Source: Escherichia phage 121Q
DNA: 64,000 nucleotides
Sequence record: NC_025447.1
Direction: 5' to 3' (one strand)
Each line of letters starts with the position of its first letter. The first letter of the stretch is position 1. This document shows, in pieces, positions 9,537 to 52,852 of the stretch. The notes beneath the pieces are model-generated. The model saw only the letters and a list, made by a program, of their open reading frames with translations. It was not told the DNA's origin and did no database searches. A program made the position numbers and the translations under genes.

Positions 9537-9800
9537 ATGAATATCCAAGATAGATTACAATTACTGTACACTATTGAACAGGCTGCTTTTGAACTTGTTC
9601 GAAAAATATCAGATGAACTACCTAAAGGAACTAAAGTTCGTGTACGTGAGATGAATTATTTTTCTGGAGTAATTGAAGAACAAGTACTAACAGTGAATAA
9701 AGTAACATACTATGAATCTGAGTTGTCTATTCAGTGTGAATCGGATGATGGATTAATATCATATTATGGAACTGATGTAGATATAGAGGTAATAAAATGA
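9537..9800 (+). CDS. hypothetical small protein
   Basis: ATG 9537 with RBS GGTGGA, directly after previous stop. Confidence 0.45.
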   Translation: MNIQDRLQLLYTIEQAAFELVRKISDELPKGTKVRVREMNYFSGVIEEQVLTVNKVTYYESELSIQCESDDGLISYYGTDVDIEVIK

Positions 9801-10939
9801 CCCTTTTACAAATATATGAAGATTTAATGCACTTATGTAATACAAACGATGCGTTTTTTTATGTGGATCATAAAAGTCCTGCTGGTGGTACGTATCGTGT
9901 ATTCAGTTATCGTCTAGCATCATACACTGATTTCATGCAACCAAATGCGTTGGAAACCCGTGGCTCTATGTGGGAAATTGATGAAGAAGGTGACATGATA
10001 CGTTGTGCAGCACGTACAATGAAAAAGTTCTTCAATGCTTACGAGAATCCTGCTACAATGTTCCCTGCTAACACCACATGCGATGACATTGCGGTAGTTA
10101 TGCCTAAGTTGGATGGTTCGATCATCAGTACTTATCGTGATAATGATGGTGAGATTCGTTGTAAATCACATACTGCATTGTATTCTGACCATGCGATTAA
10201 CAGTACTCGACTTATTAACGAGAACCAGAATTTGTATCAGTACATCGACGAAGCGGAACGTTTAGGTTACACAGTTAATATGGAGTATACAAGCCCAGAG
10301 TACCGAATTGTATTACCATATCAGGTAGAACAACTGTTTGTACTGAACGTTCGACATCGTGTGAGTGGTGAGTTGCTATGTGGTAAAGCACTACGTGATA
10401 AGTTTCCATGCCTTGCACAGTACAGTACTAATATGACCGGAAAAGATATTCATCACACTTTTCCGGTACGAAATACCTTCCGTGAAAGCGTGGAGGAAGT
10501 TCATAAAATGCTTGATATTGAGGGTTTTGTGTGCATCCTAAATAATGGGACAATGTGTAAAATAAAGACTGACTGGTACAGTTCATTACATCTTACAAAA
10601 GATAGTATTATTATTGATTCTCATTTATATGAAGCCGTATTAAATGGTTCAAGTGATGATTTAAAACAATTGTTCAGTACTGATGAATATGCTATGCAAA
10701 AGATATTAAGAATGGAACAATTGGTATTTTCGTGCTATAATGCATTACAAGATGAAGTAGAAAGCTTCGTCAAGGAACACAAGCACTTGGAGCGAAAGGA
10801 ATTCGCAATGAAGGTTCAGGAGTGTTTAACTAATGAACTGAATCGTCAGGGCTTGGCCTTTGCAATGTATAACAATAAGAAAGTTGATTACAAAGAGACT
10901 CTTATAAAATACATGAAAATTGTACTAAAGGATTTTTAG
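9797..10939 (+). CDS. rnlA: RNA ligase 1 (T4 Rnl1-like)
   Basis: 380 aa; recalled T4 Rnl1 similarity along the length (TYRVFSY, KLDGS nucleotidyl-lysine motif, IKTDWY, GSSDDLK). Confidence 0.85.
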   Translation: MTLLQIYEDLMHLCNTNDAFFYVDHKSPAGGTYRVFSYRLASYTDFMQPNALETRGSMWEIDEEGDMIRCAARTMKKFFNAYENPATMFPANTTCDDIAVVMPKLDGSIISTYRDNDGEIRCKSHTALYSDHAINSTRLINENQNLYQYIDEAERLGYTVNMEYTSPEYRIVLPYQVEQLFVLNVRHRVSGELLCGKALRDKFPCLAQYSTNMTGKDIHHTFPVRNTFRESVEEVHKMLDIEGFVCILNNGTMCKIKTDWYSSLHLTKDSIIIDSHLYEAVLNGSSDDLKQLFSTDEYAMQKILRMEQLVFSCYNALQDEVESFVKEHKHLERKEFAMKVQECLTNELNRQGLAFAMYNNKKVDYKETLIKYMKIVLKDF

Positions 10940-12035: not shown

Positions 12036-12968
12036 ATGCCAACTATTACACTGACAGTTGGATTACCTGGGTGTGGCAAAACCACATGGGCAGTTCAAGA
12101 AATTAAAAATGCCAAATCGAAGACTATCAACATTAACCGTGATGACATTCGAGAATCAATGGCAGGGTCACATGATGCATACAAATTCAACGACGCTAAT
12201 GAGCAGTACGTAACTAAAATGCAGTTCAGTGCAGCAAATTCAGCAGCAGAGAATGGTTGGAACATCATTGTGTCCGATACGAACCTTAAACAACATTTCC
12301 GTGATGAATGGAAACGTTGGGCTAAAGATAATGAATACGACTACAAAGAAAAGAACTTCTACGAAGATTTCGTACCTAATGAAGATCGTGGTGCAGATGT
12401 TCATGTTTTCTTTAAGATTAAAGAGTTCGTAAAACTTTGTAAGAAACGTAACCTCATGCGTGAGCGTTCAGTACAAGATAATATCATCGACACTATGGCA
12501 GATACGTACTATTATAGTAAGGCCATGCACATTGGTTACTATGGTAATTCACGAGAAGCTGCTGTTATCGTTGATATTGACGGTACTCTTGCTCATAAAT
12601 GGGGTCGCAATCCTTACGATGAAAGTACTGTTCTTCAGGATACACCAGATGAAGAAGTTATTTTGTCTATTATCGCTGAAGCAGTTTTTCATAAACGCAA
12701 GATTATCGTCATGAGTGGGCGTACTGAAGGGTGTCGTGCTGATACCGAACAGTGGCTTAAGAATTGGGGTATTCCTTACGATGCATTGTTTATGCGAGAC
12801 ATAGATGATAAACGTCCCGATGATGTTGTAAAATTCGACCTGTACATGAAAAATGTGGTTGATCATTACGATGTTAAAAAGGTTTATGATGACCGCGATC
12901 AAGTTGTATTCATGTGGCGTAAGCTACTTGGCTTGAAAGTAATGCAAGTTGCAGAAGGAAATTTCTAA
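12036..12968 (+). CDS. pseT: polynucleotide 5-prime kinase / 3-prime phosphatase (T4 PseT-like)
   Basis: P-loop GLPGCGKTT at N-terminus, HAD phosphatase motif DIDGTL, C-terminus QVAEGNF like T4 Pnk; 310 aa. Confidence 0.9.
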   Translation: MPTITLTVGLPGCGKTTWAVQEIKNAKSKTININRDDIRESMAGSHDAYKFNDANEQYVTKMQFSAANSAAENGWNIIVSDTNLKQHFRDEWKRWAKDNEYDYKEKNFYEDFVPNEDRGADVHVFFKIKEFVKLCKKRNLMRERSVQDNIIDTMADTYYYSKAMHIGYYGNSREAAVIVDIDGTLAHKWGRNPYDESTVLQDTPDEEVILSIIAEAVFHKRKIIVMSGRTEGCRADTEQWLKNWGIPYDALFMRDIDDKRPDDVVKFDLYMKNVVDHYDVKKVYDDRDQVVFMWRKLLGLKVMQVAEGNF

Positions 12969-17419: not shown

Positions 17420-17647
17420 ATGAAAGTAATTCAAGTTATGGTAGAAAAATACCAAACTGAAGATGGTCGTATTTTTGATTCAGCTAAACAAGCTGAACAC
17501 CATGAACGTATTATTTCGGGTGCACGTAAAGTGTGTCCTACATGTAGTGGAACACAACAAGTACCGTCAGAAGATTACCGCAGCTTTTATGCTTGTCCAC
17601 ACTGTGATGGGAAAGGCTATGTAGAAAAACAAGAGGTATGGAAATGA
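17420..17647 (+). CDS. small zinc-finger protein
   Basis: CPTCSGT and CPHCDGKG motifs. Confidence 0.5.
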   Translation: MKVIQVMVEKYQTEDGRIFDSAKQAEHHERIISGARKVCPTCSGTQQVPSEDYRSFYACPHCDGKGYVEKQEVWK

Positions 17648-19256: not shown

Positions 19257-19267
19257 AGGAATATACA

Positions 19268-20686: not shown

Positions 20687-20705
20687 TCATTTATTGGAGG
20701 TAATT

Positions 20706-21497: not shown

Positions 21498-21509
21498 TGT
21501 GAGGATACA

Positions 21510-21893: not shown

Positions 21894-21894
21894 T

Positions 21895-22299: not shown

Positions 22300-22302
22300 T
22301 TT

Positions 22303-22331
22303 GGACATTTTAAATCTTAGTGATATAATAC
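22303..22331 (+). promoter_or_regulatory. sigma70-like promoter (TTGGAC, 17 nt, TATAAT)
   Basis: hexamers and spacing read from sequence. Confidence 0.5.
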
Positions 22332-22363
22332 TCACTACAACGAAATAATAGAGGAAATTAACA

Positions 22364-29475: not shown

Positions 29476-29484
29476 GAGTTTAAC

Positions 29485-29805
29485 ATGTCTTACGCAATGT
29501 TTTTGGATGATATTCGTGATGCAAATCTATATTATCCAAACCAAGATATGGTGGTATGTCGTGACTTTAAAAGTGCATGTGAATATGTTATTGAAAATGG
29601 AATTCCAGCATTTGTATCATTCGACCATGACTTGGGTGATGTGAGCGAAGACGAAAAGACTGGATATTCTTTTGCTAAGTTTCTTATTGATTATATGTTT
29701 GATAATAATATTAAAGAACCGTTTGAGTACTTTGTTCACAGTAGTAATCCTGTTGGTAAAATTAATATTGAAACATACTTAAACAATGGATTTAACGCAT
29801 TATGA
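29485..29805 (+). CDS. hypothetical protein
   Basis: ORF in track with RBS. Confidence 0.45.
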   Translation: MSYAMFLDDIRDANLYYPNQDMVVCRDFKSACEYVIENGIPAFVSFDHDLGDVSEDEKTGYSFAKFLIDYMFDNNIKEPFEYFVHSSNPVGKINIETYLNNGFNAL

Positions 29806-30104
29806 TTCAAACACACATCAAAAGTCTTATTTGTACTGTTCTGTTAGGTGCAGGAGTTCTTTGGTTCGGACAGTATCACGAGAACACTAAGCGTACCAAC
29901 ATTCACTACAATACCGCAGAAGTTGTTAGTTTAGGACAATGTAGCGAGTCCAAATGTTCATTCATGTATAAAACCCAAAGTGGTGAAGTACGTAATGGAC
30001 TATCAAGAGAACCAGTTTCAATTGGTCAACTTGTTTACCAGGAGTGCTGGGAAGAAAAGGTTCGAGGTTCACGTTGCTATGTTGAATACGAACCAAATAT
30101 GTAA
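29802..30104 (+). CDS. membrane-anchored small protein
   Basis: N-terminal hydrophobic segment. Confidence 0.45.
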   Translation: MIQTHIKSLICTVLLGAGVLWFGQYHENTKRTNIHYNTAEVVSLGQCSESKCSFMYKTQSGEVRNGLSREPVSIGQLVYQECWEEKVRGSRCYVEYEPNM

Positions 30105-30164
30105 TAATCCGAGTCAATAACATTAGTCGAGTACAAGGATGTACTCATAACTCAAGGATGTTTT

Positions 30165-31604
30165 ATGAAAAAATATACAATTGACACAAACGTACTACTA
30201 TCTGACCCTAATGCATCTATTGCTTTTGATGGTGCTGCAATCATTCTACCATTTACAGTACTGGAAGAATTAGATTCGATTAAGAGTCGTAATGTAGATG
30301 TTTCACGCGATGCTCGTGTTGCTATTCGTAACATTGAAGCAATTATTGCAGATGCATCACATGACGAGATTAGTAGTACTGGTGTTAATATTGCTGATGT
30401 TCATACCAATATGAATCCTGATAGCAAATTGTTTGTTATTACAAACGAAGAAGCTGAGGCACTAATTCGTACTAAAGGTACAGAAGAGAAAGTTCAAACC
30501 CTTCTCAAAAGTACTGTACCTGATGATAAAATCATTCTGGTAGCTTTAGCAACAGAATCAGTACTGGTAACTCGTGATATCAACATGCGTATCAAAGCAC
30601 TAAGTTATGGTGTCGAGGTACAAGATTATCGCCATGATATTGTTATTGGTGATAGTGATTTGATTCACATTGGTCAACACCATCTGGAAATCAATTTTTG
30701 GGAAGTATACAGCAACTTAACCAATACTAATATTCAATCCGAACAAGTTGGTCGTCGTTTGTATCATTACATTTCTAAAAGCTTGATTGAACATCTGCTT
30801 CCACAAAATCTATGCATCGGTGATTATCTATATGATGATGCTGACGTATTATTTGTGTACGAAGGACAATCAGCAATTGAGGAAGATGATGGAACACTAA
30901 CACCAGAAGATATTTTGGTATTCCAAGACATTGGACAATCAGTGTCTTTACGTGCTAAAGTATGGGATATTAAAGCAAAGAATATCCAACAAGCACTCGC
31001 CATCAACAGTATTCTCGATCCTGATGTACATCTAACAGTACTGCTAGGTTCTGCTGGTACTGGTAAAACACTAATTACAATTGCTACTGCATTAGAATTA
31101 GTACTGGAAAAACGTAAATACGACCGAATCATCTTCTCTAAAACTCAAGACTCACAGTTTGAAGATATTGGTTTCTTGCCAGGTTCAGAAGCAGAAAAAG
31201 TGATTCCATTCTGTGGAGCCGCGATTGATGCGTTAGAGTTTCTTCATAAAGATGATGCCAATCCACAAGGTAGTATTGAAGAGATTATGAAACGTAATGT
31301 TATTCAATTTAAAGCACTAAACTTTGTACGTGGACGTTCATTCACCAACACTATTCTAGTAGTTGATGAATTCCAAAACATTACACCTGCACAAGCAAAA
31401 ACCATCTTGACACGAGCAGGGTTAAACTGTAAAGTAGTAATTATGGGTAACTTGAGTCAGATTGACAGTAAGTTTATTAGTCCTGTTAACAGTGGTTTGA
31501 CATATGTAACTGAGAAGTTTAAAGACTGGGCAGGTTGTCGTGTCATCGAACTAGAAGGTGTTGTTCGTTCACCACTGGCTGAATTTGCTGAAGAAAATAT
31601 GTAA
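30165..31604 (+). CDS. phoH: PhoH-like ATPase with N-terminal PIN-like domain
   Basis: Walker A LLGSAGTGKT and Walker B VVDEFQN; 479 aa. Confidence 0.8.
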   Translation: MKKYTIDTNVLLSDPNASIAFDGAAIILPFTVLEELDSIKSRNVDVSRDARVAIRNIEAIIADASHDEISSTGVNIADVHTNMNPDSKLFVITNEEAEALIRTKGTEEKVQTLLKSTVPDDKIILVALATESVLVTRDINMRIKALSYGVEVQDYRHDIVIGDSDLIHIGQHHLEINFWEVYSNLTNTNIQSEQVGRRLYHYISKSLIEHLLPQNLCIGDYLYDDADVLFVYEGQSAIEEDDGTLTPEDILVFQDIGQSVSLRAKVWDIKAKNIQQALAINSILDPDVHLTVLLGSAGTGKTLITIATALELVLEKRKYDRIIFSKTQDSQFEDIGFLPGSEAEKVIPFCGAAIDALEFLHKDDANPQGSIEEIMKRNVIQFKALNFVRGRSFTNTILVVDEFQNITPAQAKTILTRAGLNCKVVIMGNLSQIDSKFISPVNSGLTYVTEKFKDWAGCRVIELEGVVRSPLAEFAEENM

Positions 31605-39950: not shown

Positions 39951-42647
39951 ATGTCAAAGAAAATATATGGTGGCTTGGATGTCACACATAATGTGACAGT
40001 TAATGGTAAAAGAACAATACAAGGTATCAATGATCAAGTATTTGATGCTAATGGCAATATGGAGCTAGATACTTATTCAAGAGATGAAGTACTAGATATC
40101 GTCAGTATGATGCCAATTTCCCATTATGGGTCACAAAACTATCTTCCTGCTGGTGTATCTGGTGATTTCAATGGTGCATCTGAAAACCAGTCCCAACGTA
40201 GAAATAAAATTTTATTAGAAAACGATGGTACACTCGTATTATTACGTAGTGGTACAAACGGTAGTGTTGAGGGATTATATTATTCATATTTGGCTAACGC
40301 ATTATCAGTTGATGACATGAGCCGTACAATTAACACCAGTCGTCAATACAAGCCTGGTTTTTTCGGTTCAAATCGCGTCGCAATTGGCTTATACAATACT
40401 GATCCAAATATTTTACTCGGTAGATATGTAGACACTTCTAACAGTACTAATGGATTGTTTATTTCTATTACTAATGGTACATTAGATGATAAATTACATA
40501 CTGGTTTTTTTGTAAATCAAGCAGATATTTGCCCTGAAGGTGGTATAGAATTTGCAATGATGGCTGAAGATGGTTCAATCTATGTCTTTAGTGTTCTTAA
40601 TGAAAATAACCAACTACAGTTAGTTGTTGTCCGAGTTGTATATAATATTAGCAATGGAACATATACGGCAACTCGTATTACAGGATGGACTACAAAAACA
40701 TTCTATAATACAACTTATTCTGCACAGAATAACATGGTTATTACTAATCAAGTAACTTCAACTAATATAGCAGATAAGCCTTATGTGTATGTACCACAAA
40801 ACCTACGTGGTATTGGGATTTATATGACATCCATTGATTTGTATGTTGCACAGCAACCAGGAACACAGAACTTTCGTTTTAGAATGAATGGTGATGCATG
40901 GTTTACAATGGCGACATATAATGCCCGACCACAACATAGCTACAGCTTTGCATTTAATATGAGTACTAAACAATGCACCCTAGACGCTGGGAATGACATA
41001 GGTTCATATCAAGCACCATTGGTTATAACCAATACTGGTTCTGCATTAGTGCCTACAGGTAACGTTTTAAATAATGATCCATTATATAATCATGCTAATG
41101 CAAGAAACATTTATAGTTCTTATTTTTACTTAAGTTCAGGTGAAGCTTTTTGTACTGTGTGTCCAAACTTAGCAGAACCATTACTTATGCAAAAAGCAAA
41201 GTTTCCTATACAAATTGTTTATAGTATGATTAACGTTCGTGCAGTACAATCAACTGATTTTAAAGGTGGAGTTGTTAGACCATCCTTTGGTTCAGCAGTT
41301 GGTTCATTTATTAATGGTGTGGAGTTGTTACCAGATAATAGTACTAAACAATATTCACGTGCGTCTGGTAGTGGTGGGTTTAGACCATCATATGCAGTTC
41401 ATAAAAGTACTCCTAATTTTACATTTAAATCATTATCTTTAGGAACCATACAAGGTTATGAACCTACAACTGAACGTGGTTATGTAGATGATAATGCCAA
41501 TAATAGAATTTTCATTAGTAGTATTTCAGGTTCAACTGTAACAACTAATGGCGGTATTTTTATGGTTGGTCAACGTTATTCACAATCATTTTCATATGAT
41601 AAAAACTTAAATGGTACTGGTGTTATTAGTGTTACACAATCAGTTCTAGATAACTTTAGAAATACAGAATATGCTAAAGTTCTAAGTGACTGGAACTTAT
41701 CTTCACAAGCTTATCGTGATATGACATTATTTGTTCCACAACAAACTGACATTCCGGCTTTTGTTATGTTGAGTACTATAACAAATGACTATAAAAACTA
41801 TATTAGAATTGCTGAAGTTAACGTTAATACTAGAGTTGGAAATATAACATCTATTACCTTTAAGCGTTTAGTACTAGAAAATACATATGGTGAAAACTTT
41901 ACACCTAATGGTAATGGTTCGATTGCATCTTCTTCTGTTGGGTTAACAATTTATGATGGTGGTTCATTCTACTTCATTGGTGGTTCTGACCCATTAACAC
42001 ATCCAACAATAGGAAATACAGCAACTCATCAATTTAGAGCATATGTAACTAAATCAACTGCACAATTTACAAGTTTTGTTATTACTGGTTCTCATGCCAG
42101 TTATGAACAAGGAAGACAACCCACTGCGTTGCCTGGTATTGGATTTGGTATTTTTGATCCACTGGATTATACAAATAAAATGTCATTTCAAAAATATGGA
42201 ACAACGATAGCCGACTATAATAACTGGACTCCACAAGGTAGCCCAATTAACGTAGTATCACAAGACGTTGCTCAAGGGTTTATTGTTTATTTTACAGAGG
42301 AAACACCAGTTATACTATCAGGTAAGTCTTTTACACTACCAGTTTCAAATATTGATTTGAGAACTATAAAATCTAATCCAGCAAATACAACATTTTATGT
42401 ATATGTTAAATTAGAACAAGGGTTGGCAAACTACTACATAACTACTGATGTTATTTCCGAAACAGGAACAACTGCATATAATATTTTTTGGATAGGTACT
42501 ATTCAAACTAACGCAATTCAAATCGAAACTATTAATATACAAAAACGTTCACGTTTAGATATATTTGGTGCTTCACTTGAATCAGCAGGTTCATCGTTCC
42601 CAGTTAGCTACGGTCTACCATCACAAACAGGAACCATAAACTGGTAA
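39951..42647 (+). CDS. tail fiber / receptor-binding protein, paralog 1 (898 aa)
   Basis: Asn/Ser/Thr/Gly-rich; N- and C-terminal modules shared with the next two ORFs; late promoter upstream. Confidence 0.5.
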   Translation: MSKKIYGGLDVTHNVTVNGKRTIQGINDQVFDANGNMELDTYSRDEVLDIVSMMPISHYGSQNYLPAGVSGDFNGASENQSQRRNKILLENDGTLVLLRSGTNGSVEGLYYSYLANALSVDDMSRTINTSRQYKPGFFGSNRVAIGLYNTDPNILLGRYVDTSNSTNGLFISITNGTLDDKLHTGFFVNQADICPEGGIEFAMMAEDGSIYVFSVLNENNQLQLVVVRVVYNISNGTYTATRITGWTTKTFYNTTYSAQNNMVITNQVTSTNIADKPYVYVPQNLRGIGIYMTSIDLYVAQQPGTQNFRFRMNGDAWFTMATYNARPQHSYSFAFNMSTKQCTLDAGNDIGSYQAPLVITNTGSALVPTGNVLNNDPLYNHANARNIYSSYFYLSSGEAFCTVCPNLAEPLLMQKAKFPIQIVYSMINVRAVQSTDFKGGVVRPSFGSAVGSFINGVELLPDNSTKQYSRASGSGGFRPSYAVHKSTPNFTFKSLSLGTIQGYEPTTERGYVDDNANNRIFISSISGSTVTTNGGIFMVGQRYSQSFSYDKNLNGTGVISVTQSVLDNFRNTEYAKVLSDWNLSSQAYRDMTLFVPQQTDIPAFVMLSTITNDYKNYIRIAEVNVNTRVGNITSITFKRLVLENTYGENFTPNGNGSIASSSVGLTIYDGGSFYFIGGSDPLTHPTIGNTATHQFRAYVTKSTAQFTSFVITGSHASYEQGRQPTALPGIGFGIFDPLDYTNKMSFQKYGTTIADYNNWTPQGSPINVVSQDVAQGFIVYFTEETPVILSGKSFTLPVSNIDLRTIKSNPANTTFYVYVKLEQGLANYYITTDVISETGTTAYNIFWIGTIQTNAIQIETINIQKRSRLDIFGASLESAGSSFPVSYGLPSQTGTINW

Positions 42648-42658
42648 AGGATTACATA

Positions 42659-43246
42659 ATGGCATTTAAAATAAGAGCAGACCTTAAGGCAATGCAACAA
42701 GTTACAGTACAGGGTAAAAGTACTGGACTTGGTGTATTAGGTAATAATATGACTTATTACCCAACAAATTCAAATGGGGAATGTACATTCCCCTCTATTA
42801 CCAAAGATGAAGTTAACTTTATTGTCAATGGATTACCACTTACACAATACGGAGAATTGTATGATGACGCTAGTCTAAATATTACTTCATCAGGCTATAG
42901 TCTTACATTTAATAGACAGATACCATCATTTATTGGTGGTTATCTTTATAAATTTCCAGCAGTTTCTATTTTTGCTTCAACTGTTTCATCTGGAACACAA
43001 ACACAATATGTATATGCAACGTTAGTTCTCGGTGAACCAATTTATAAAATATCACCAACACAAATACAAGAATCTGAAATTATAATGTTTATTGGAACAC
43101 TGACCGTTGGTACAAGTGGTATTACAAATATAAACATTAATAAAGTATCCAGATTTAGTACATATAGACCTAGTGTTACACAAAAAGGTTCTTCATTCCC
43201 AGTCAGTACTGGAAAACCATCAGAAACTGGTACAATTGGTTGGTAA
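42659..43246 (+). CDS. short tail-fiber-like protein, paralog 2 (195 aa)
   Basis: shares N-terminal and C-terminal (SSFPVSTGKPSETGT) modules with flanking long fibers. Confidence 0.45.
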   Translation: MAFKIRADLKAMQQVTVQGKSTGLGVLGNNMTYYPTNSNGECTFPSITKDEVNFIVNGLPLTQYGELYDDASLNITSSGYSLTFNRQIPSFIGGYLYKFPAVSIFASTVSSGTQTQYVYATLVLGEPIYKISPTQIQESEIIMFIGTLTVGTSGITNININKVSRFSTYRPSVTQKGSSFPVSTGKPSETGTIGW

Positions 43247-43262
43247 ATTAAGGAAAAGAAAG

Positions 43263-45992
43263 ATGTCATCAAAACGAATTATAGGAAGTGCCGAGATCCT
43301 TGGGAACTTGGCAATTGGACAAAGGTACGCTATGCGTACTTTTAATGGAACCTCACCGAATGCCAATACTGGAATTGTTCAATATCCAATATATAAGCGT
43401 TCAGAAGTTCAAAGTATTTTAGATATGTTGCCTATATCACGTGTAGGAGAAATGGATTACTTGCCATTAAACGTAAGTGGGTCGTATGAAGGTGCTACAC
43501 CTATGTCAAGTGACCAAGTAGTTCAGCCAACAATTATTGAAGATGATGGAACCGCCGTTGTTCTGCGTAGCGGAACCAATGGTAGTACTAAAGGTTTTTA
43601 TTATTCATTTATACGAGAAATCAGAAATATAACCATGATTTCACAAGAAAGTGTTATTTCAACCAATTCAATGTATAAACCTTCAATTATGAGTAGTACA
43701 GAGAATATTAAGTATTTTATTGGCTCTAATGGTTATGAAATGCTTGGATGTTTAAGTACAGAAGATAATTATATTTTTACTATAACTAATGGTACATTCA
43801 ACGAAGTATCACATATTCATGCTAAAGTACCAAGTACTTCTTTTGGTAATGATATGCCTATATATACTCATATTGTTGGAACAAAAGTATATATTTGGTG
43901 TAAAGATAAAAGTGTTTCTAATTTAGGATTAGCACTTTCAATTTATACAGTAGAGCTAAGTGATGTGAAAGCAAGCTCAATGGCATCATTAACAAAAGTT
44001 ACTGGATTATCAGGGCAAACTGTTCGAAATACAAGTTATTCTGCATCTAATAACATAAGAGTGTTTGATAGATTATATAGTGTTGGTACTAGCTCGGATT
44101 CATTATTCGAAGTTACATCACCAGTCTCACGTGTAGAATTTTCGGATTATACAGACTTTAATATACAAGCAAACGTTAGTACTGATTTATCCAAAATACG
44201 TGTAACTTTATACCCAACCCATAGAATGGTTACACCTTTATATATTTCAACAGTGTATGGTACTGGTATCAGTTTTGTTTATAATATAAACTCAAAATCT
44301 ATGTCACTAGATGGTTCTGCTCGTGCTCCTGCTACAGTTTCATATGATAATGGATTTCAAGTTTCTAACCCATTTGAAATCAATATGGTCAACTTTACTG
44401 GGACAACTGCTGCTGGTGTATTAGGAAACGCAGGTGGTTTATGTCAAACCAAAGATGGTTTAGTATTTGCATCTAAATTTAGATGGAGTTCAACTGAATT
44501 TTATGGTCTACAACGATATAAGGTTAGTGGTACACCGTTTGATTCATGGGTTGCTAGTACTAGATCCGCAAGTAACGTTATAAATGCAAACGTTTTACCA
44601 GTTTTTGGTAGTGCTGTTGGTGCAAACCTATTAGGTGTACGTTTCATCGATAATAGAAAAATATTATTAGCATGTTCTGGTACGTATGATGATGTAACAT
44701 ATAATTATAATAATACTGTTTTTTCTGAAATAGGCTCACAACCAACATATCAATATAACTCAGTTCAAAATAATACTACATTAAATGGTTTTGCACCACA
44801 ATCTAATCGTAAACAAATAGGTGATGATTTTACATACACTGCTATGATTTCTCTTGTTGATACCGATGGTAGTGTTAGATGTTATGGAACATCATTCATT
44901 GAAGGTGTATATAAAACAAGTGGTGGATTATTAAACCCAGATACTTTAGAATTTGATGAAACATATACAATAGAACCAACGGTATTAGAATCATTAAAAC
45001 AAGATATTTTTGCTAATCTAGGAAACTCTGGCATTGTTGGTACACTATCTGGACAAATTGTATTATATTATGTACCTGATAATACTTTTTCTAAATCCAT
45101 TGCAGTAGTTTCAGCATATAATCTTAACAATAACCAAGGTTATGCAATCTATGCCGAAGTTGATGTTGTATTATCTGGAACTAACATAACTTCAGCTACA
45201 TTGGTAAGTACTAGATATGAGACACTTAGTTCTGTTACCGGAATTATTACTGAAGCATATATGAAACGTTGTACTGGTCTAACAGTTGCTAAATATTCAG
45301 GATTTGGTTACATTGGTGTTGATGCAGTTCATCAATTTTCACAACCAGGTAATGCACAATTTAAGATGATGATAGCTAAAACAGTAGATGGTGTCATAAC
45401 ATCAAATCGTTTTTTATCATCTAGTTACATCCAACTCGGTGCAGCATATCAACATGGTGTTATTCCTGGTGTTGGTTTTGGATATTACAATTTTCAAGAT
45501 TCTGACTATCAAACCAAATCTGTATTCAGCGTTTTTGGTACAACATCTGCTGAAATGGATGGTTTAATTAGCGGAAATGGTAGCGTTAAAGAAAAGATTG
45601 TGGTAGTATCACAAGACGTTGCACAAGGATTCTCAGTGTACTTTACACGTGAAGTCCCGGTGTTTTTAGGTGGAATTTTCGACAGACTACCTATACAAAG
45701 TGTAGATTTAAGTACTGTAAAAAGTAATCCAGCTAATACTACGTTCTATTTGTATATACAAATGAACAGGAATACTAAGAAAGCTTCATATGTTATTAGT
45801 ACTGAAACAATTGATGAATCTTTAACTAGCACTTACATTGGTAAGATAGTTACTGGAACTTCAGGAATAACTTCAATTGATACAGAAAAAGTAACTCGTT
45901 TTTTGACATATCGTCCAAGTACAACGAAACGTGGTTCAGCGATACCTGCCAGTACTGGTGTACCATCAGGTCCAGGTACACGTTGGAAATAA
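43263..45992 (+). CDS. tail fiber / receptor-binding protein, paralog 3
   Basis: start refined to ATG after previous stop with RBS AAGGAAAAG; N-terminus aligns with 39951 ORF. Confidence 0.5.
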   Translation: MSSKRIIGSAEILGNLAIGQRYAMRTFNGTSPNANTGIVQYPIYKRSEVQSILDMLPISRVGEMDYLPLNVSGSYEGATPMSSDQVVQPTIIEDDGTAVVLRSGTNGSTKGFYYSFIREIRNITMISQESVISTNSMYKPSIMSSTENIKYFIGSNGYEMLGCLSTEDNYIFTITNGTFNEVSHIHAKVPSTSFGNDMPIYTHIVGTKVYIWCKDKSVSNLGLALSIYTVELSDVKASSMASLTKVTGLSGQTVRNTSYSASNNIRVFDRLYSVGTSSDSLFEVTSPVSRVEFSDYTDFNIQANVSTDLSKIRVTLYPTHRMVTPLYISTVYGTGISFVYNINSKSMSLDGSARAPATVSYDNGFQVSNPFEINMVNFTGTTAAGVLGNAGGLCQTKDGLVFASKFRWSSTEFYGLQRYKVSGTPFDSWVASTRSASNVINANVLPVFGSAVGANLLGVRFIDNRKILLACSGTYDDVTYNYNNTVFSEIGSQPTYQYNSVQNNTTLNGFAPQSNRKQIGDDFTYTAMISLVDTDGSVRCYGTSFIEGVYKTSGGLLNPDTLEFDETYTIEPTVLESLKQDIFANLGNSGIVGTLSGQIVLYYVPDNTFSKSIAVVSAYNLNNNQGYAIYAEVDVVLSGTNITSATLVSTRYETLSSVTGIITEAYMKRCTGLTVAKYSGFGYIGVDAVHQFSQPGNAQFKMMIAKTVDGVITSNRFLSSSYIQLGAAYQHGVIPGVGFGYYNFQDSDYQTKSVFSVFGTTSAEMDGLISGNGSVKEKIVVVSQDVAQGFSVYFTREVPVFLGGIFDRLPIQSVDLSTVKSNPANTTFYLYIQMNRNTKKASYVISTETIDESLTSTYIGKIVTGTSGITSIDTEKVTRFLTYRPSTTKRGSAIPASTGVPSGPGTRWK

Positions 45993-45998
45993 ATTTAA

Positions 45999-46025
45999 AG
46001 CTCGTCTATTGACGGGCTTTTCTTT
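45999..46025 (+). terminator. rho-independent terminator
   Basis: GCTCGTC...GACGGGC stem plus T-run. Confidence 0.5.
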
Positions 46026-46059
46026 TATGTGTATAATTGAATAAAAATAGGAGGAAATT

Positions 46060-46626
46060 ATGGTCAAATCTTTATTACCGCCACCAAAACGTCACAAAAT
46101 CAAAGAAATGAAAGAACAACGTACATTAAAGATGTACATCAATTTAGTTAAGTTACTGTGTAAAAGTCCATCGCTCAAAGCAGAGTTTAAAACTGATGAT
46201 GACCGCAAAGCACTAATTGAGATGAAGTATATGCTCAGTAAAATGTCCTTTTACAAATTTGTAAAAGAATACGCATCTGACCCATTTAGTCCTCGTTGGA
46301 GAGCCAAACCAAGAGAGTATTTTTACGGTGGTTCATATACGGATCTCATTCAAGACACAGTGATGGGAGTTGAATTTGAAATCGATTATGAGCCGAATGG
46401 TGTGGAAAGCTGGCCGATTGAGAAACGTTTACCAAGTGAAGAAGAAATTTATGTTTATGCAAGAAAACTTTCAAATTTCAGTTCAAGAATTACTCTAGGC
46501 AATTTAGATTCATTTATTATTTTCTATACACGTGTTGGTGTAGATAAAATGGTAACTAAACTCAATGAACTTTCATTACAACAAAAACAGATTAATGCAT
46601 ACAAAGACATTACTGATTTATACTAA
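46060..46626 (+). CDS. hypothetical protein, triplicated family member 1
   Basis: RBS GGAGG; shares central motif with next two ORFs. Confidence 0.5.
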   Translation: MVKSLLPPPKRHKIKEMKEQRTLKMYINLVKLLCKSPSLKAEFKTDDDRKALIEMKYMLSKMSFYKFVKEYASDPFSPRWRAKPREYFYGGSYTDLIQDTVMGVEFEIDYEPNGVESWPIEKRLPSEEEIYVYARKLSNFSSRITLGNLDSFIIFYTRVGVDKMVTKLNELSLQQKQINAYKDITDLY

Positions 46627-46638
46627 TGAGGAATGGAT

Positions 46639-47154
46639 ATGTTTTTTGGATCAGTTGGAAAACAAAACAGTACTTTAATTTGGCATGAAATTATCTTTAA
46701 AATTATATCTAAAAGCTACTCACTAAAGGATATTATTACCACAGATAATGATAGACGTATCCTGTTAGATGCAAAATATAAATTGAGCAAACACCCTTTA
46801 CTTTCTTTAATCATTGATTACGTTAATGATTATGAATCTAGTCGTTGGAAGTGGGAAGACGGCGGTTTATTTCGTGGAAAAACATTCTACGGTGCGGAAC
46901 GATATGTTTTCAGTGATACATCAAATGGCGTTAAGTTTGTTATTAGAAACTTTAACTCCAAAGAAAATGATTATCTTGAAAGTGGAGTGAAAGTATATAT
47001 CGATAATAATAGCAATGTACTAACATATGACGAATCACTAATTATGTTACAAATAATGCGTGGAGTTGAAGGTGTAAGAAACAACCTTACTAAATTGAAA
47101 ATCCAGCAAAATGATATACATAATAGACAGAAAATTAAGGGTTTATATAAATGA
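46639..47154 (+). CDS. hypothetical protein, triplicated family member 2
   Basis: ORF in track. Confidence 0.45.
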   Translation: MFFGSVGKQNSTLIWHEIIFKIISKSYSLKDIITTDNDRRILLDAKYKLSKHPLLSLIIDYVNDYESSRWKWEDGGLFRGKTFYGAERYVFSDTSNGVKFVIRNFNSKENDYLESGVKVYIDNNSNVLTYDESLIMLQIMRGVEGVRNNLTKLKIQQNDIHNRQKIKGLYK

Positions 47155-47660
47155 TTTCATTTTTCAAAAAGAAACAAAAAGTTGATGAAACCGGATTAGA
47201 ATCGTTTCTGTGGACTCTTATCATCAAAAAAAGCCCATTGATGAAAGAATATGCTATCAATGATGCTAATAGAAAAACTATCATTGAATACAAATATGAA
47301 TTATCTAAATGTGATCCAATTGTTTATCACTTTGCGAAGTACTGTTCAAAAAATTTATCGGATATCACAATCGACCACGAGTCAGTCCCGATGAGTTTTC
47401 CTTATGGTGATTGGGTAGATACTTTTGATATTTTTGATGGGTCAAATGGTTTCAGTTTCTTTTACTCGTCAAATAAAGCAAATGTTCGTATTAAAACAGA
47501 CATAGGTTGGACACAGCATAGCTCAAATAAAGAAGATTATAATTTATTAGCTGACGTATACCGAAGTGTGAAGAATTCAAAGGATATTGATGAAAGAATT
47601 AAAAAGCAAAATCGTATATCTTTATCACTTGAAACATACAAGTCAAAGTATGGTGGTTAA
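47151..47660 (+). CDS. hypothetical protein, triplicated family member 3
   Basis: ORF in track. Confidence 0.45.
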   Translation: MISFFKKKQKVDETGLESFLWTLIIKKSPLMKEYAINDANRKTIIEYKYELSKCDPIVYHFAKYCSKNLSDITIDHESVPMSFPYGDWVDTFDIFDGSNGFSFFYSSNKANVRIKTDIGWTQHSSNKEDYNLLADVYRSVKNSKDIDERIKKQNRISLSLETYKSKYGG

Positions 47661-47662
47661 CT

Positions 47663-48064
47663 ATGACTACAGTTGATGATATCTATAGCACTATACGCAA
47701 TATGAGTACAGATAGAAAAGTATTTGGCGATAAAGAAAAATCTAAGTGTTATGGTATTGATTCTTTTGATATAATTTCTTATGAGTACAATACAAGTGGA
47801 AATAGTTCACTGAATATCGTCTGTCCTCGTGACCCAGAAAATAATTTTATGTATGTTGAAATTAATAATGATGGAATGTTTTTTACAAAAGTTTTCAAAG
47901 GTGGAATTAATTACGAACCTATTGAATGTATGAATGAAGAAACTTTCTTTCAAGAAGATACAATTATCAATTTAGGTTTTAGTTTTGATGATTATAAAAC
48001 ATTAGAACATGACTTTAATCGTTATTATAATGGTTTCTTAAAGGAGTTAACAATTTATCTATGA
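47663..48064 (+). CDS. hypothetical protein
   Basis: ORF in track. Confidence 0.45.
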   Translation: MTTVDDIYSTIRNMSTDRKVFGDKEKSKCYGIDSFDIISYEYNTSGNSSLNIVCPRDPENNFMYVEINNDGMFFTKVFKGGINYEPIECMNEETFFQEDTIINLGFSFDDYKTLEHDFNRYYNGFLKELTIYL

Positions 48065-49293
48065 ATAACCAATATATTGAACAAACAATAGTGAAACACT
48101 TGGCTGGGTCACAAGCCTACGGAACCAGTACACCTGAAAGTGATACTGATTATCGTGGTATTTTTCTTGCTAATAAAGAATTTATTCTTACACCCTTCTA
48201 TAAGGTCAAAGAGGTAGCTGATAAAAGCGAAGAAGATACTAAATTCTATGAGTTGAATCAGTATTTAAAATTATACACTGAAGCTAACCCTAATATTCTT
48301 GAATCACTTTGGGTTGAACCTGAACACATTGTTGAAAGTACTGAAATTTATGACTATCTTCGTTCATTTAACCAAAAACTTCTTAGTTCCAAGATTGCAT
48401 TTTCATATACTGGTTATGCATATAATCAGATTAAGCGTATGACAAATCATCACGGTTGGATGGATAAAGAGCGTATTGCTGAAAAACGATTAAATGAGAT
48501 TTTAGAAGAACACCCTGTCGATGAGGTTCTTGCGTGGATGTATGATTCATTCCCACAGTATCTTGTTGAACGTTTAGATACATCCAACTTACATCCATTT
48601 AATGCTAAAAAGATTGATTTTGAAAAATATATGCGTGATACATCATTGCAGTTAGTTTCGAAAAATCCATTAAAGCAATATCATTTCGTAAGATTAGTGC
48701 ATAACTACACTACTGAAAAAATTCTTGATCGTGATTTCAATTTATTGAATTTTAATAATGGTTATGAACTAATTCATTACGGAGAAAACATTTTTGCGAT
48801 TGTTAAGAATCCTAATGAAAGCACTATTAACCATGATGGTTCATTGCGTTATTTTTCAAAAGAACGTAGTACTGAAGAGTTGAAAAACAAACCAGAACTA
48901 ATTGTCAAATTTAACGAAAAAGAATATCAGGAAAATAGTGAGAATAGGAAAAGTTATCATAAATGGAAAGAAAATCGTAATGCCAAACGTGCTATTTTAG
49001 AATCACAACACGGATACGATTGTAAACATGCTATGCACACAATCCGACTTTTGAATAGTGCAGAAGAAGCATTACAAAGTGGAATTATTCAAGTTAAACG
49101 ACCAGATGCACAAATGTTGATGGATATTCGTAATGGTAAATGGAAGTATGAAGAAGTATTAGAATATTTCGATGATAAAGTACAATACATTCGTGATGTT
49201 CTATATAAGAAATCAGTACTTCCTAAAAAACCAAACATCAAGTTAGCATCAAAAATTATCATTGATATTAGAGAAATGCAATGGTATAAGTAA
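48061..49293 (+). CDS. Pol-beta-superfamily nucleotidyltransferase
   Basis: N-terminal GSQAYGTSTPESDTDYRGIF matches the hG[GS]...D.D signature. Confidence 0.5.
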   Translation: MNNQYIEQTIVKHLAGSQAYGTSTPESDTDYRGIFLANKEFILTPFYKVKEVADKSEEDTKFYELNQYLKLYTEANPNILESLWVEPEHIVESTEIYDYLRSFNQKLLSSKIAFSYTGYAYNQIKRMTNHHGWMDKERIAEKRLNEILEEHPVDEVLAWMYDSFPQYLVERLDTSNLHPFNAKKIDFEKYMRDTSLQLVSKNPLKQYHFVRLVHNYTTEKILDRDFNLLNFNNGYELIHYGENIFAIVKNPNESTINHDGSLRYFSKERSTEELKNKPELIVKFNEKEYQENSENRKSYHKWKENRNAKRAILESQHGYDCKHAMHTIRLLNSAEEALQSGIIQVKRPDAQMLMDIRNGKWKYEEVLEYFDDKVQYIRDVLYKKSVLPKKPNIKLASKIIIDIREMQWYK

Positions 49294-49307: not shown

Positions 49308-49499
49308 ATGGTACTAAAAATGCCATTACACTCAATAAATACTCAATATAAATTAACACAAGGATTAAGTATGGCACAACAAATTTTCACAGATATCCAC
49401 ACTACCGGAGTTATTAAATTTCAAAATAATTTTTCTGGTGCTACTGGTGTAGACATTAAAAATGATGGTTTTAACATTGTCAGTACTCGGATCTATTGA
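49308..49499 (+). CDS. small ORF overlapping the next gene; possibly 5-prime part of a frameshifted gene
   Basis: ORF in track; overlaps 49462 ORF by ~38 nt. Confidence 0.3.
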   Translation: MVLKMPLHSINTQYKLTQGLSMAQQIFTDIHTTGVIKFQNNFSGATGVDIKNDGFNIVSTRIY

Positions 49500-49998
49500 T
49501 GGTGAAGATAGTTCTCTTAGTGATTCTGTGATTGCATCATTCGGAACTAATAAAAACAGTTCTTTTATTATATCTGGATGGACTGGAATGACTGATTCTG
49601 AAAATAATGTTAAGATAAAAGCTAAAGCTACTAACGAGAATCATGAAACAGAATGGGTAACATTATATGATAGTGCAAGTAATAAGTTATATAATGTATT
49701 AAGTTCTAATAATATTTTAATTAATCCACTGTCGGGCAATTCTGTTTTTAATATTAATTTATCTGATAGAAATACTACTATTTCGATTGGTGCGGCTCCT
49801 ACTGAAGTTTATTCAATTACCATCCTATTAACACAACAAACAGGTTCAAACCTAGTTAATTGGGGTTCTAATGTTAAATGGTCATATAACAGACCAGTTG
49901 TTCTTTCTTATGAAATTGGTGAAAAAGATATTATTTCATTAGAAACATATGATAAAGGAGTTACATGGTACGGTGCATTAATTAGAGCAGGAGTATGA
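49462..49998 (+). CDS. hypothetical protein, possibly structural
   Basis: ORF in track; Asn/Ser-rich. Confidence 0.4.
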   Translation: MMVLTLSVLGSIDGEDSSLSDSVIASFGTNKNSSFIISGWTGMTDSENNVKIKAKATNENHETEWVTLYDSASNKLYNVLSSNNILINPLSGNSVFNINLSDRNTTISIGAAPTEVYSITILLTQQTGSNLVNWGSNVKWSYNRPVVLSYEIGEKDIISLETYDKGVTWYGALIRAGV

Positions 49999-49999
49999 T

Positions 50000-52789
50000 A
50001 TGTTAAACAATAATATTGATAATATTGTACAACTTCTTTATGGGCATCACAAATTTATTGAAAGAAATACTGGTGATACAATAGACCCAACAGTACAACA
50101 TTATGTGGTGAACAATCAGGGTGTTTTGGCGAACAACCGTCATTTTATTAACTATTCTGCAATGGAAGGTCAACCAAACGGTGACGGAACAACAGAAGGT
50201 CAAAGTCTATTAATTTTAGGATACATTTATGCGTATCTGGCAACAAATGATCCAATGTTTTTAGATAAGGCAAAGTGGTATTGGGACGCATATCATCAGT
50301 ACTTTTATGCTGGACGTGAATTACCAGATCCACCTACACCACTACAATGTAACTGGATAGTTAATGCCAAAGAACCTATATTGGCTAACTGGCCTTTAGC
50401 TGATGATGGCTGGCCCACACATGGTGGTTTCAAGGGAGTAGAATTTACATTTACTAATGGTCAATGTAAAATACCACATGGTGCACCATATTATGGTCAG
50501 TTCTTGGATAAAGTGACATTTGCATTCAAAGGTGCGTTAGCATGGAACCAAATAAATGCTTCAGTAAAAGCATTATTACCAGATGGTAGTGTTGATTGGG
50601 ATACACCAGGTGAACAATATGATGTTGACTGGATTATCGATTTCATGGGTAGAAAAATCGACTGGGATGGTAATATTTTAGCAGAAGGTTTTGACGAATC
50701 TGAAAAAGGAACTGTTCAATTAAAGAATACAACAATTAATGGTGTATATAAATTAAATTTTGCAAATCGTCAACCAGTAGAATATGGTGGTGTGATAATT
50801 CAACGAAATGAAATGCAACACAACCGCCCTCTTCATGTTCCAATTGATTTGGAATTTGCTGATAACGCATCAGATGCAGAATTATGGTTTAGTGATGCTT
50901 CTTATTTGTTATATAAAATAACAAAAGAAAGAAAACATTATTTGGGTTGGAAATGTTCACTACTAACGTGTTATGCTTATGGTGATATTGACTCCAGAGA
51001 TAAATTTTTCAGACAAAGTACAATTGTAACCACACCATTCACTGATGGTATTTCCTATGAATATTTTTATCCTAGTGATGCTATTGCTAAGTTTGGTAGA
51101 AATTCTCTAGGATATATTACTATCAGGCAAGACCAAAGTGCACAAAGTACTATGGAACAACAAGCTATTTGGTTCAGGGTCAATGCTGATTCTAAATTAC
51201 TTGTAGACTATGGTGGTGTATGTGATGATGGTAAGCCGTTATCATTTAAACCAGTACTGGAATTGTCAAAAACAAAAAATGACCATGATGTTGTTCGTTA
51301 TCGTTGTGGCTTACCGGAAAGTAAAGACCAAAATATCACACATTCATTAACACCTTTAAGTGCATTTGTTAGAGAAAAGAAAGCAGATGGTTTCCCTTAT
51401 ATAATTGCTGATAGTAGAATTGTTGTTCCTTATGGTGCAGCTACGTCCGAAATGATATATAGTACTGATATATTAGTTACACGCCGCGATACCATTAATC
51501 AGTTAGTTTGTGGTGAAGATGATGGTGCTGTTATTGGATTTTGGCTATTAGCAACAAATAAGTCTGAAGTTAAATCTTTTACCTATCGTTCATATGAAGA
51601 TGATTACAATATAAGAATTGTAGATGATAATGGTTGGAGATGGTGGTGGATGATTCCTGCAACACACGGGGAATGGACTACAATCACACTAAGTTCCGAT
51701 ACATTACGTTTATCTGGGTATCAGCCAAATCATCCAAGTTCTGACCCAAGACCAGATGCACCAGTTTATAGTGAACTAGAAGATATTACTATTTTACCTG
51801 ATACAACCCCAGTAGATGGTGTTGCTGCAATAATTGATTGGTATTGTATTAATGACATTCCAGAATTATACACGGATGCTGACGGTGATGACTATACTAT
51901 GACATTTTCAATAACAATTGCAGGTGAATCACCATATACTGCACAGTTAGGGGATTGTGTAATCAAGGATTATTTGTTAAACTCATTGCATTACACACCA
52001 GGAACAATACCATTTTCTAACATCACTGACCCGTATGCGAACCAGTATTCAGGATGGCGTGGTTTACCGTATCCAGGTTATCAATATCCTGTGATATATT
52101 GTTTTAAAGACCAGCCAGTAGATAACACACGCTTAGGAAACATGTTAAGCTTTATGAAAGATTCCCAAACATGGTTTACTCAACAATTCGGTACTGTTGG
52201 TCCGTGTGCACAAGCATATGTTTGGAACCGCTGGGATAACTTAAAATATGGTGAACCAGATACATTTACTATGCTACATTGGGGTGATCAAGCATGGAGT
52301 GGGTATGAACCACGTGCGTTCTTTGGGGCTGCCAGAGCATGGCAAGAACTCGCAGAGAGAGGAATTGAACCACCAGCAGATCTTGTTGAATTTTGTGAGA
52401 ATTGGATTCACTTTTTAATTCAATTTCAAAAAGATAATGATGGTCGTTCACCAACAATCTTCAATAAAGATGGCACAGTTGAAGGTCCAGATTGGGACTT
52501 TACAGGTCATATGTGTGGGTTGTGGTTAGCTGGGGCTTGTGCTGCTGGATTGGCTGGATGTAAAATAGAAGGTCTAACAACACTCGCTGATAACTTAGTT
52601 CTCGAACTTCAAAAGAATTATGTTATTGTAAATCCAGGTTCACCAATGAATGGTTCATGGAGTCCAGCAGTTAGAGAAGGTACTGATAATGGTATGTTTT
52701 TTGGTTTCTGGGCAGGTGAGATTATGCGTGGATTGGGATTATACTCAATGTACCGCTTAAACACACCAAATCGTTTCCGTGATTTATAA
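50000..52789 (+). CDS. large protein (929 aa), possibly virion-associated or carbohydrate-active; function unknown
   Basis: long Trp/Tyr/Gly-rich ORF directly after fiber-like genes. Confidence 0.4.
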   Translation: MLNNNIDNIVQLLYGHHKFIERNTGDTIDPTVQHYVVNNQGVLANNRHFINYSAMEGQPNGDGTTEGQSLLILGYIYAYLATNDPMFLDKAKWYWDAYHQYFYAGRELPDPPTPLQCNWIVNAKEPILANWPLADDGWPTHGGFKGVEFTFTNGQCKIPHGAPYYGQFLDKVTFAFKGALAWNQINASVKALLPDGSVDWDTPGEQYDVDWIIDFMGRKIDWDGNILAEGFDESEKGTVQLKNTTINGVYKLNFANRQPVEYGGVIIQRNEMQHNRPLHVPIDLEFADNASDAELWFSDASYLLYKITKERKHYLGWKCSLLTCYAYGDIDSRDKFFRQSTIVTTPFTDGISYEYFYPSDAIAKFGRNSLGYITIRQDQSAQSTMEQQAIWFRVNADSKLLVDYGGVCDDGKPLSFKPVLELSKTKNDHDVVRYRCGLPESKDQNITHSLTPLSAFVREKKADGFPYIIADSRIVVPYGAATSEMIYSTDILVTRRDTINQLVCGEDDGAVIGFWLLATNKSEVKSFTYRSYEDDYNIRIVDDNGWRWWWMIPATHGEWTTITLSSDTLRLSGYQPNHPSSDPRPDAPVYSELEDITILPDTTPVDGVAAIIDWYCINDIPELYTDADGDDYTMTFSITIAGESPYTAQLGDCVIKDYLLNSLHYTPGTIPFSNITDPYANQYSGWRGLPYPGYQYPVIYCFKDQPVDNTRLGNMLSFMKDSQTWFTQQFGTVGPCAQAYVWNRWDNLKYGEPDTFTMLHWGDQAWSGYEPRAFFGAARAWQELAERGIEPPADLVEFCENWIHFLIQFQKDNDGRSPTIFNKDGTVEGPDWDFTGHMCGLWLAGACAAGLAGCKIEGLTTLADNLVLELQKNYVIVNPGSPMNGSWSPAVREGTDNGMFFGFWAGEIMRGLGLYSMYRLNTPNRFRDL

Positions 52790-52790: not shown

Positions 52791-52819
52791 TTGACATAGA
52801 AAAAGTAATTATGTATAAT
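52791..52819 (+). promoter_or_regulatory. sigma70 promoter (TTGACA, 17 nt, TATAAT)
   Basis: consensus hexamers with 17 nt spacer. Confidence 0.6.
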
Positions 52820-52820
52820 C

Positions 52821-52852
52821 AGAGAACTTCATATGGAGTTCTCTTTTTTTTA
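52821..52852 (+). terminator. rho-independent terminator
   Basis: AGAGAACT...AGTTCTCT stem plus eight T. Confidence 0.6.

Follow-up and report, generated by a model that had tools for sequence, protein, structure and literature searches.

The gene at positions 48061..49293 (+ strand) of a 64,000-nucleotide stretch of Escherichia phage 121Q (NC_025447.1; hereafter the window, meaning the whole stretch that was analysed) encodes, as judged from its sequence, a complete Pol-beta-fold nucleotidyltransferase (NTase) of the RlaP family. We consider it probable that this phage RlaP adds one or two nucleoside monophosphates (NMPs) to the 3'-OH of broken RNA, replacing nucleotides excised by a toxin before the RNA is repaired. 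In kind, the finding is already known, as RlaP is named in Pfam, has been catalogued in jumbo phages and is partly characterised. The open reading frame (ORF) starts with ATG and comprises 410 amino acids (aa) plus the stop codon. The window is 99.8% identical over 6.8 kb to jumbo coliphages of the PBECO4/phAPEC6/BF17 type, and its source is an Asteriusvirus-type jumbo coliphage. Near-identical copies of the gene are present in several GenBank relatives, where they carry the label ‘nucleotidyltransferase’.

The initial annotation had taken the protein for a Pol-beta-type nucleotidyltransferase, and the profile search bears this out. Pfam PF10127 (RlaP, ‘RNA repair pathway DNA polymerase beta family’) was matched above its curated threshold, scoring 59.3 bits where 23 are required (E=6.3e-16), the match spanning only residues 13-131, aligned to profile positions 24-144 of 249. 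Over the full length, the protein matched the ‘nucleotidyltransferase’ family phrog_388 of PHROGs (E=2.8e-76). The N-terminal peptide quoted in the initial annotation, GSQAYGTSTPESDTDYRGIF, corresponds to residues 16-35 of the real 410-aa ORF. Homologues are numerous: 844 were found in a protein database clustered at 90%, and in a 50% library the set at E<=1e-3 runs to 10,516 representatives. The search against NCBIfam returned one sub-threshold spurious match only, and a Pfam search with the isolated C-terminal 110 residues returned nothing relevant.

The remainder of the protein was placed by means of a bridging sequence, a 277-aa protein from Abditibacteriota (L113), which covers practically the whole length of the RlaP model in Pfam (21-248 of 249). 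The window NTase aligns to it in two blocks: residues 7-134 onto 1-125 (E 9e-21), and residues 284-408 onto 154-277 (45% identity, E 6e-31). Because this is a two-block alignment to a canonical RlaP, the C-terminal block can be identified as the RlaP helical domain. Both halves align, and the window protein therefore reads as a complete RlaP whose halves are split by ~150 residues. Thus, the enzyme is not the ‘minimal’ nucleotidyltransferase it had been called; it consists of three parts, namely the NTase domain, the 150-aa insert and the helical domain (Table 1).

When 38 diverse homologues are aligned, G16-S17, D28-x-D30 and D59 of the NTase domain, the Pol-beta triad, show no variation; these residues line up with their counterparts in L113. 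The active-site carboxylates D28, D30 and D59, on which the initial annotation had made its reading depend, are consequently all in place. The insert (aa 135-283) stands where L113 has a linker of ~28 residues. Its helical part, the first ~65 residues (aa ~135-197), is confined to the jumbo-phage clade; its alpha/beta part (aa ~198-283) recurs in relatives of ~350 aa from cyanobacteria and from other phages. The insert was confidently modelled, yet matched no solved fold. In the C-terminal domain, the same 38 sequences show a strongly conserved block rich in basic residues, with W302, R306, N307, R310, E314, D320, K322, H326, R329, E336, R347, D349, R357 and G359 invariant. The GYDCKHAMH motif of this domain is encoded at 49012-49038.

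The AlphaFold2 model of the 410-aa protein, built with an alignment (pLDDT 91.1, pTM 0.81), shows the NTase domain together with a HEPN-like bundle, arranged as in KNTase-type enzymes. Neither the protein nor the family profile matched the sequence of any PDB chain, and Foldseek found no solved structure below E 0.001. The closest solved folds (8-17% identity) were kanamycin nucleotidyltransferase ANT(4') and Hailong HalB, which likewise consist of a Pol-beta NTase followed by a helical HEPN/KNTase_C-like domain. When the alignment was inspected by eye, no conserved R-x4-6-H motif was seen among the invariant C-terminal residues; the bundle therefore resembles a KNTase_C-type scaffold and not a HEPN RNase.

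A further observation concerns the invariant GYD[C/T]KHAMH motif. Several phage alleles of the NTase (L068, L077, P0094, P0121 and P0131; 680-780 aa) contain an intein exactly between its D and C/T. The intein begins with C-Y-x-D..TEFLT and ends with H-G-N, and the L077 copy shows a weak LAGLIDADG match. The window NTase is intein-free; its residue at the +1 position is Cys, whereas Thr prevails there in homologues that lack the intein.

Table 1. Positions of the NTase gene, its parts and other features of the window.
Feature	Position	Strand	Basis or remark
RlaP-family nucleotidyltransferase gene	48061..49293	+	PF10127 E=6.3e-16; phrog_388 E=2.8e-76; AlphaFold2 pLDDT 91.1, pTM 0.81
N-terminal Pol-beta NTase domain, aa 1-134	48061..48462	+	Alignments with Pfam RlaP, T4 NrdC.11 and L113
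Catalytic codons G16-S17; D28; D30; third carboxylate D59	48106-48111; 48142-48144; 48148-48150; 48235-48237	+	
Insertion between the RlaP halves, aa 135-283	48463..48909	+	Helical part aa ~135-197, alpha/beta part aa ~198-283
C-terminal helical (HEPN/KNTase_C-like) domain, aa 284-410	48910..49290	+	
133-aa ORF upstream of the NTase gene	47663..48064	+	phrog_22376; stop overlaps NTase start codon
Terminator-like hairpin overlapping a sigma-70-like promoter	45997-46020 (hairpin); 46009-46037 (promoter)	+	11/12 consensus matches, scan only
Rnl1-type RNA ligase, candidate downstream partner	9797..10939	+	PF09511 + PF20819
Pnkp polynucleotide kinase/phosphatase, candidate end-healing partner	12036..12968	+	PF25109 (E 1.9e-43) + AAA_33
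Calcineurin-like phosphoesterases	16376-17134; 20634-21497		
ATP-dependent DNA ligase	19268-20686		
ClpP	22364-23059		

As to function, the G-S / D-x-D / D triad with a divalent metal would take one or two NMPs from nucleoside triphosphates and attach them to the 3'-OH of an RNA that has been broken or trimmed. This RNA would most probably be a tRNA, and it would bind in the cleft that separates the NTase domain from the basic helical domain at the C-terminus. During infection, the enzyme would restore the nucleotides that host ribotoxins of the excising type, RloC for example, have cut out. The refilled ends would then be passed on, so that either phage Pnkp and Rnl1 or a CCA-adding enzyme could complete the repair. 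Rebuilding of 3' ends had been suggested in the initial annotation, and homology supports it: two bacterial RlaPs do so in vitro (bioRxiv 10.64898/2025.12.29.696909), and the same has been predicted for RlaPs of jumbo phages (PMC7824862).

The two bacterial enzymes are PfRlaP and PaRlaP of Pseudomonas, encoded between rtcB and rtcA and described in a December 2025 preprint by Carruthers, Fatma & Huang (bioRxiv 10.64898/2025.12.29.696909). According to this preprint, they put 1-2 NMPs or dNMPs on an RNA 3'-OH in vitro, are more active with Mn2+ than with Mg2+, accept dATP as a donor, and show neither extension of DNA nor labelling of protein. On a mimic of a cleaved tRNA they favour the anticodon-side 3' end (5' half) over the acceptor 3' end, and RlaP partly restores the aminoacylation of a tRNA short of one anticodon-loop nucleotide. 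Its authors propose RlaP as an antidote to nucleotide-excising ribotoxins, e.g. RloC. The window protein shares with these enzymes the Pfam family, the G-S / D-x-D / D motifs and the plan of an NTase domain followed by a C-terminal helical domain. Unlike the compact enzymes encoded with rtcB and rtcA, it is phage-encoded, carries the ~150-aa insert and has no adjoining ligase.

For jumbo phages, Iyer, Anantharaman, Krishnan, Burroughs & Aravind (2021) found RlaP to be the commonest of the NTases that restore ends, distributed in parallel with the RNA ligases, and predicted it to be the nucleotide-restoring partner of these ligases, i.e. a template-independent NTase restoring lost RNA-end nucleotides before ligation, while CCA-adding and Thg1 enzymes would have analogous roles at tRNA ends (PMC7824862). 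The main idea of the initial annotation is therefore the published RlaP prediction. These authors argue from co-distribution, whereas the neighbourhoods presented below show linkage to CCA-adding and Thg1-like enzymes and not to ligases.

Another phage member is T4 NrdC.11, assigned to RlaP in cluster 5 of the sequence similarity network and uncharacterised (bioRxiv 10.64898/2025.12.29.696909). It aligns with the window protein at both ends (N-terminal residues 2-154, E 2e-13; C-terminal, E 6e-5) and shares its genome with Rnl1 and Pnkp while adjoining neither. It differs in its length of 336 aa, its ~29% identity, its other middle region and its neighbours mobD and nrdC.10. The T4 block nrdC.11-mobD.3 can be deleted, and NrdC.11 is dispensable in the laboratory (PMC9825161); this deletability fits a conditional function of the counter-defence type.

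At the genome level, co-occurrence with RNA-repair genes holds. The initial annotation had pointed to RNA ligase 1 and polynucleotide kinase/phosphatase in the window, and both are indeed encoded there according to Pfam; they lie 36-38 kb upstream of the NTase gene, without physical linkage to it. In phage SHEFM2K (98.8% identical), a canonical CCA enzyme is situated ~17 kb downstream of the NTase gene, just past the window end. Class II CCA-adding enzymes likewise belong to the Pol-beta superfamily and extend RNA 3' ends without a template, and they are frequent neighbours of the NTase in other phages; they form a different family (PolyA_pol head plus HD domain), of which the phage lineage thus has a separate canonical copy. 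No tRNA genes were found within the window. Outside the jumbo phages, the genome of vequintavirus SSE121 contains an NTase orthologue, two annotated RNA ligases and a CCA enzyme; as it has two RNA ligases, the genome-level co-occurrence with ligases extends beyond the jumbo phages.

To describe the gene neighbourhoods, ORFs were called in 80 viral loci with their flanks, clustered and searched with a query panel (RtcB and Rnl2 were not part of this panel), and 80 bacterial loci (L090-L169) were examined for neighbours. A neighbour-joining tree of the NTases separates three gene contexts. In the first, a large clade of environmental T4-like phages, the genes around the NTase are uvsX-, gp32- and uvsW-like, as checked against PDB sequences. 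In the second, a CCA-adding enzyme is encoded on the same strand 0-2.5 kb upstream in all nine deep-branching loci (9/9), Vequintavirinae among them; the CCA gene overlaps the NTase start in L020 and lies directly upstream in L077, and the linkage is also seen in the isolates SSE121 and CR8. In the third, the jumbo-phage clade, a Thg1-like gene is found 1.8-3 kb upstream in one subclade (8 loci) and upstream also in the isolates Serratia BF and Xanthomonas XbC2, the label being confirmed by a match to 4kgk (E 8.5e-37). In the jumbo subclade of the window itself, neither a CCA gene nor a Thg1-like gene adjoins the NTase. The conserved physical linkage of this NTase clade is with tRNA-end enzymes in place of ligases. 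A fusion of the CCA and NTase genes, considered for the environmental phage contig L077, was ruled out, as that contig holds a split CCA gene upstream of an intein-containing NTase. Together, these separate the N-terminal from the C-terminal half of a family-B DNA polymerase gene (L077 2795-9850).

The full-length bacterial relatives, at least 581 in number, are mostly encoded on the chromosomes of filamentous cyanobacteria. Among their neighbours are pentapeptide-repeat proteins, histidyl-tRNA synthetase (HisRS), CemA and a metallo-beta-lactamase-fold protein. Stand-alone genes for full-length relatives of ~355 aa that include the insert's alpha/beta part are frequent in Nostoc, Calothrix, Tolypothrix, Oscillatoria and Planktothrix. 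Such genes also occur in Myxococcota and Planctomycetota, and no operon partner is conserved.

Several of these observations weigh against the repair role set out above. Firstly, Rnl1-like and Pnkp-like genes each occurred within 10 kb of the NTase in only one of the 80 viral loci, so that the ligase association that defines the family is not seen as adjacency in this NTase clade, RtcB and Rnl2 being outside the query panel. Secondly, the bacterial relatives showed no recurrent neighbour and no ligase nearby in their 80 loci. Thirdly, about 33 of the 52 sequence groups of viral relatives have the uvsX/gp32/uvsW context, which is a setting of DNA metabolism. Moreover, the characterised RlaPs comprise only the compact Pseudomonas enzymes from RtcB operons, none of them from a phage or bearing an insert, and the 150-aa insert could alter the choice of substrate. 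Finally, the data on the RlaP family come from a preprint that has not been peer reviewed and that itself notes unresolved issues (bioRxiv 10.64898/2025.12.29.696909).

The linkage to tRNA-end enzymes also raises a different reading, possible though unlikely in our estimate, in which the NTase maintains the tRNA acceptor end together with the CCA-adding and/or the Thg1-like enzyme instead of filling gaps in the anticodon loop, e.g. as a backup or to mend 3' ends that have been trimmed, with tRNA-His perhaps favoured. The position of the CCA gene immediately upstream in every deep-branching lineage, with SSE121 and CR8 alike, the Thg1-like genes of the jumbo loci and of the two isolates, and the virtual lack of an adjoining ligase or PNK all point in this direction, as do a HisRS fragment near the gene in CR8 and a HisRS gene directly upstream in the cyanobacterial L117. 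However, the window subclade has no adjoining CCA or Thg1 gene, its CCA gene being ~17 kb off, and the synteny could reflect inherited gene order and not functional coupling. A canonical CCA enzyme already carries out 3'-end rebuilding, and the characterised RlaPs chose the anticodon side of the tRNA mimic over its acceptor end. The observations on tRNA-His, for their part, amount to three anecdotes.

The anecdotes in question concern genes related to tRNA-His near the NTase in unrelated genomes (L004 2212-2982; L005 8476-9069; L117 6213-7742): the Thg1-like tRNA-His guanylyltransferase of jumbo phages, a fragment annotated as ‘histidyl tRNA synthetase’ in Cronobacter phage CR8, and a full HisRS immediately upstream of the NTase in L117, a cyanobacterial metagenome-assembled genome. 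Their recurrence may be a coincidence. An extended form of the acceptor-end reading, which we regard as rather doubtful, would make the insert-bearing RlaPs of phages and cyanobacteria (~350-410 aa) a distinct subfamily. Its alpha/beta domain would recognise tRNA, and the enzyme would act in a ligase-independent repair of acceptor ends with CCA-adding and Thg1-like enzymes (possibly tRNA-His-biased), used by phages against host toxins that trim or modify tRNA ends.

It is improbable that the NTase serves counter-defence or another purpose apart from RNA repair, be it by AMPylating a host HEPN-type toxin in the manner of MNT, by making HalB-like short oligonucleotides that jam a host sensor, or by modifying a small molecule like an aminoglycoside NTase. 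The likeness to such enzymes is at the level of the generic fold only, as reflected in the Foldseek values given above, while both domains are squarely RlaP by sequence and PADLOC gave no match. In addition, the characterised RlaPs labelled neither protein nor DNA, and no canonical HEPN R-x4-6-H was seen. The toxin-antitoxin-type nucleotidyltransferase offered as an alternative in the initial annotation found no support either: the protein has 410 aa compared with ~100-150 aa for MNT, MNT structures align to the NTase core only, the R-x4-6-H motif of a HEPN toxin was not seen, and no HEPN gene adjoins.

An action on DNA 3' ends, with a role similar to terminal transferase in recombination or replication, appears about as improbable. 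The uvsX-, gp32- and uvsW-like neighbours in most viral sequence groups would suit it, as would the CCA and NTase cassette inside the split DNA polymerase gene of L077 and the ability of RlaP to use dATP. Against this, the characterised RlaPs did not extend DNA acceptors and the window clade lacks such neighbours. The replication module of T4-type phages, moreover, often carries unrelated accessory genes. As to a CD-NTase-like second-messenger synthase, the nucleotide-signal alternative of the initial annotation, the shared Pol-beta fold alone speaks for it, whereas PADLOC models, the CD-NTase ones included, gave no match at E<=1, the CdnC structure was reached only at a Foldseek E~1 (probability 0.04) and no effector or sensor partner lies near the NTase; we regard this role as effectively excluded.

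Around the gene itself, a Shine-Dalgarno-like AAGGAG is found at 48041-48046, 14 nt 5' of the NTase ATG. This ATG shares bases with the TGA that ends the 133-aa ORF before it (ATGA, 48061-48064), and the two ORFs are possibly translationally coupled. Among the relatives, only those of the closest subclade (L007-L010, L017) have the 133-aa ORF directly 5' of the NTase. The promoter-like site at 46009-46037 may, by consensus, start the transcription unit that holds the NTase gene; in the consensus scan, the number of promoter-like sites around the gene was not above the shuffled expectation. A second terminator-like hairpin with a sigma-70-like promoter (12/12 matches, consensus matches only) is located at 52791-52844. 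Together, the two pairs of a strong hairpin and a near-consensus promoter (45997-46037; 52791-52844) bracket a block running from a set of paralogues through the NTase to a tail cassette.

In the case of the tail cassette, the initial annotation had placed the NTase next to a tail-fibre block. The two genes 3' of it, 49462..49998 and 50000..52789, do match tail-fibre/tail families of PHROGs; the adjacency is incidental and uninformative on function. All 13 jumbo relatives (13/13) share the upstream genes and the downstream genes from 52865 on, the latter at +1.4-1.9 kb from the NTase, and none of these 13 other loci has a counterpart of 49308..52789 at the position adjoining the NTase. The megablast matches of slurp01, UE-S1 and ph0011 stop right after the NTase, at about 49332. 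The 929-aa tail protein shows 56% full-length identity to the tail protein gp038 of vequintavirus SSE121, and the C-terminus of the 178-aa tail-fibre protein is 57% identical to the C-terminus of SSE121 gp037. Because it is absent at this position in the other jumbo relatives and is a vequintavirus-type module, the cassette is lineage-specific, and for the same reasons a functional tie between NTase and tail-fibre genes was rejected. By sequence comparison, 49308-52789 looks like a receptor-binding cassette exchanged between Asteriusvirus-type jumbo phages and Vequintavirinae. The mass of the 929-aa protein agrees with that of gp314c, a 105-kDa tail fibre found in virions of phAPEC6. The list of virion proteins of that phage does not include the NTase, which fits an accessory character.

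Upstream of the NTase, three tandem paralogues of 188, 173 and 169 aa (phrog_18641 twice and phrog_7868; no Pfam match) occupy 46060-47660. One to four copies of such paralogues precede the NTase in 13/13 jumbo relatives, and in one subclade the Thg1-like gene sits inside this paralogue block. Further upstream, 39951-45992 holds two tandem phrog_3573 paralogues of ~900 aa without Pfam match. Between them lies a 195-aa ORF (42659-43246, phrog_26864) which matches their C-terminal ~120 residues. This pair is kept in 12/13 jumbo relatives; in L007, the exception, the upstream flank is truncated. The phAPEC6 virion list has a hypothetical protein of 98.6 kDa, gp323c, which may be the counterpart of one of them. 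Other window genes related to nucleic acids and NAD (16376-23059 and 28175-31604) comprise the phosphoesterases, DNA ligase and ClpP of Table 1 and, according to the SHEFM2K annotation, Sir2, Nudix and PhoH-like genes.

If the reading by homology holds, the phage would possess an almost complete tRNA repair kit, in which Pnkp heals the ends, RlaP refills them, Rnl1 seals and the CCA enzyme rebuilds the 3' ends. Such a kit would, if true, protect against anticodon nucleases that excise a nucleotide, RloC among them; the lesion made by RloC had been considered to defeat repair of the T4 type (PMC3458546). As this idea has already been published for the RlaP family, the main value here is that of a confirmation. 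The additions are modest and consist of an inserted domain of 150 aa without known fold and a conserved linkage to tRNA-end enzymes, not to ligases. Together, this insert and the CCA/Thg1 linkage pose the question of which RNA 3' end this clade of NTases repairs, the one in the anticodon loop or that of the acceptor.

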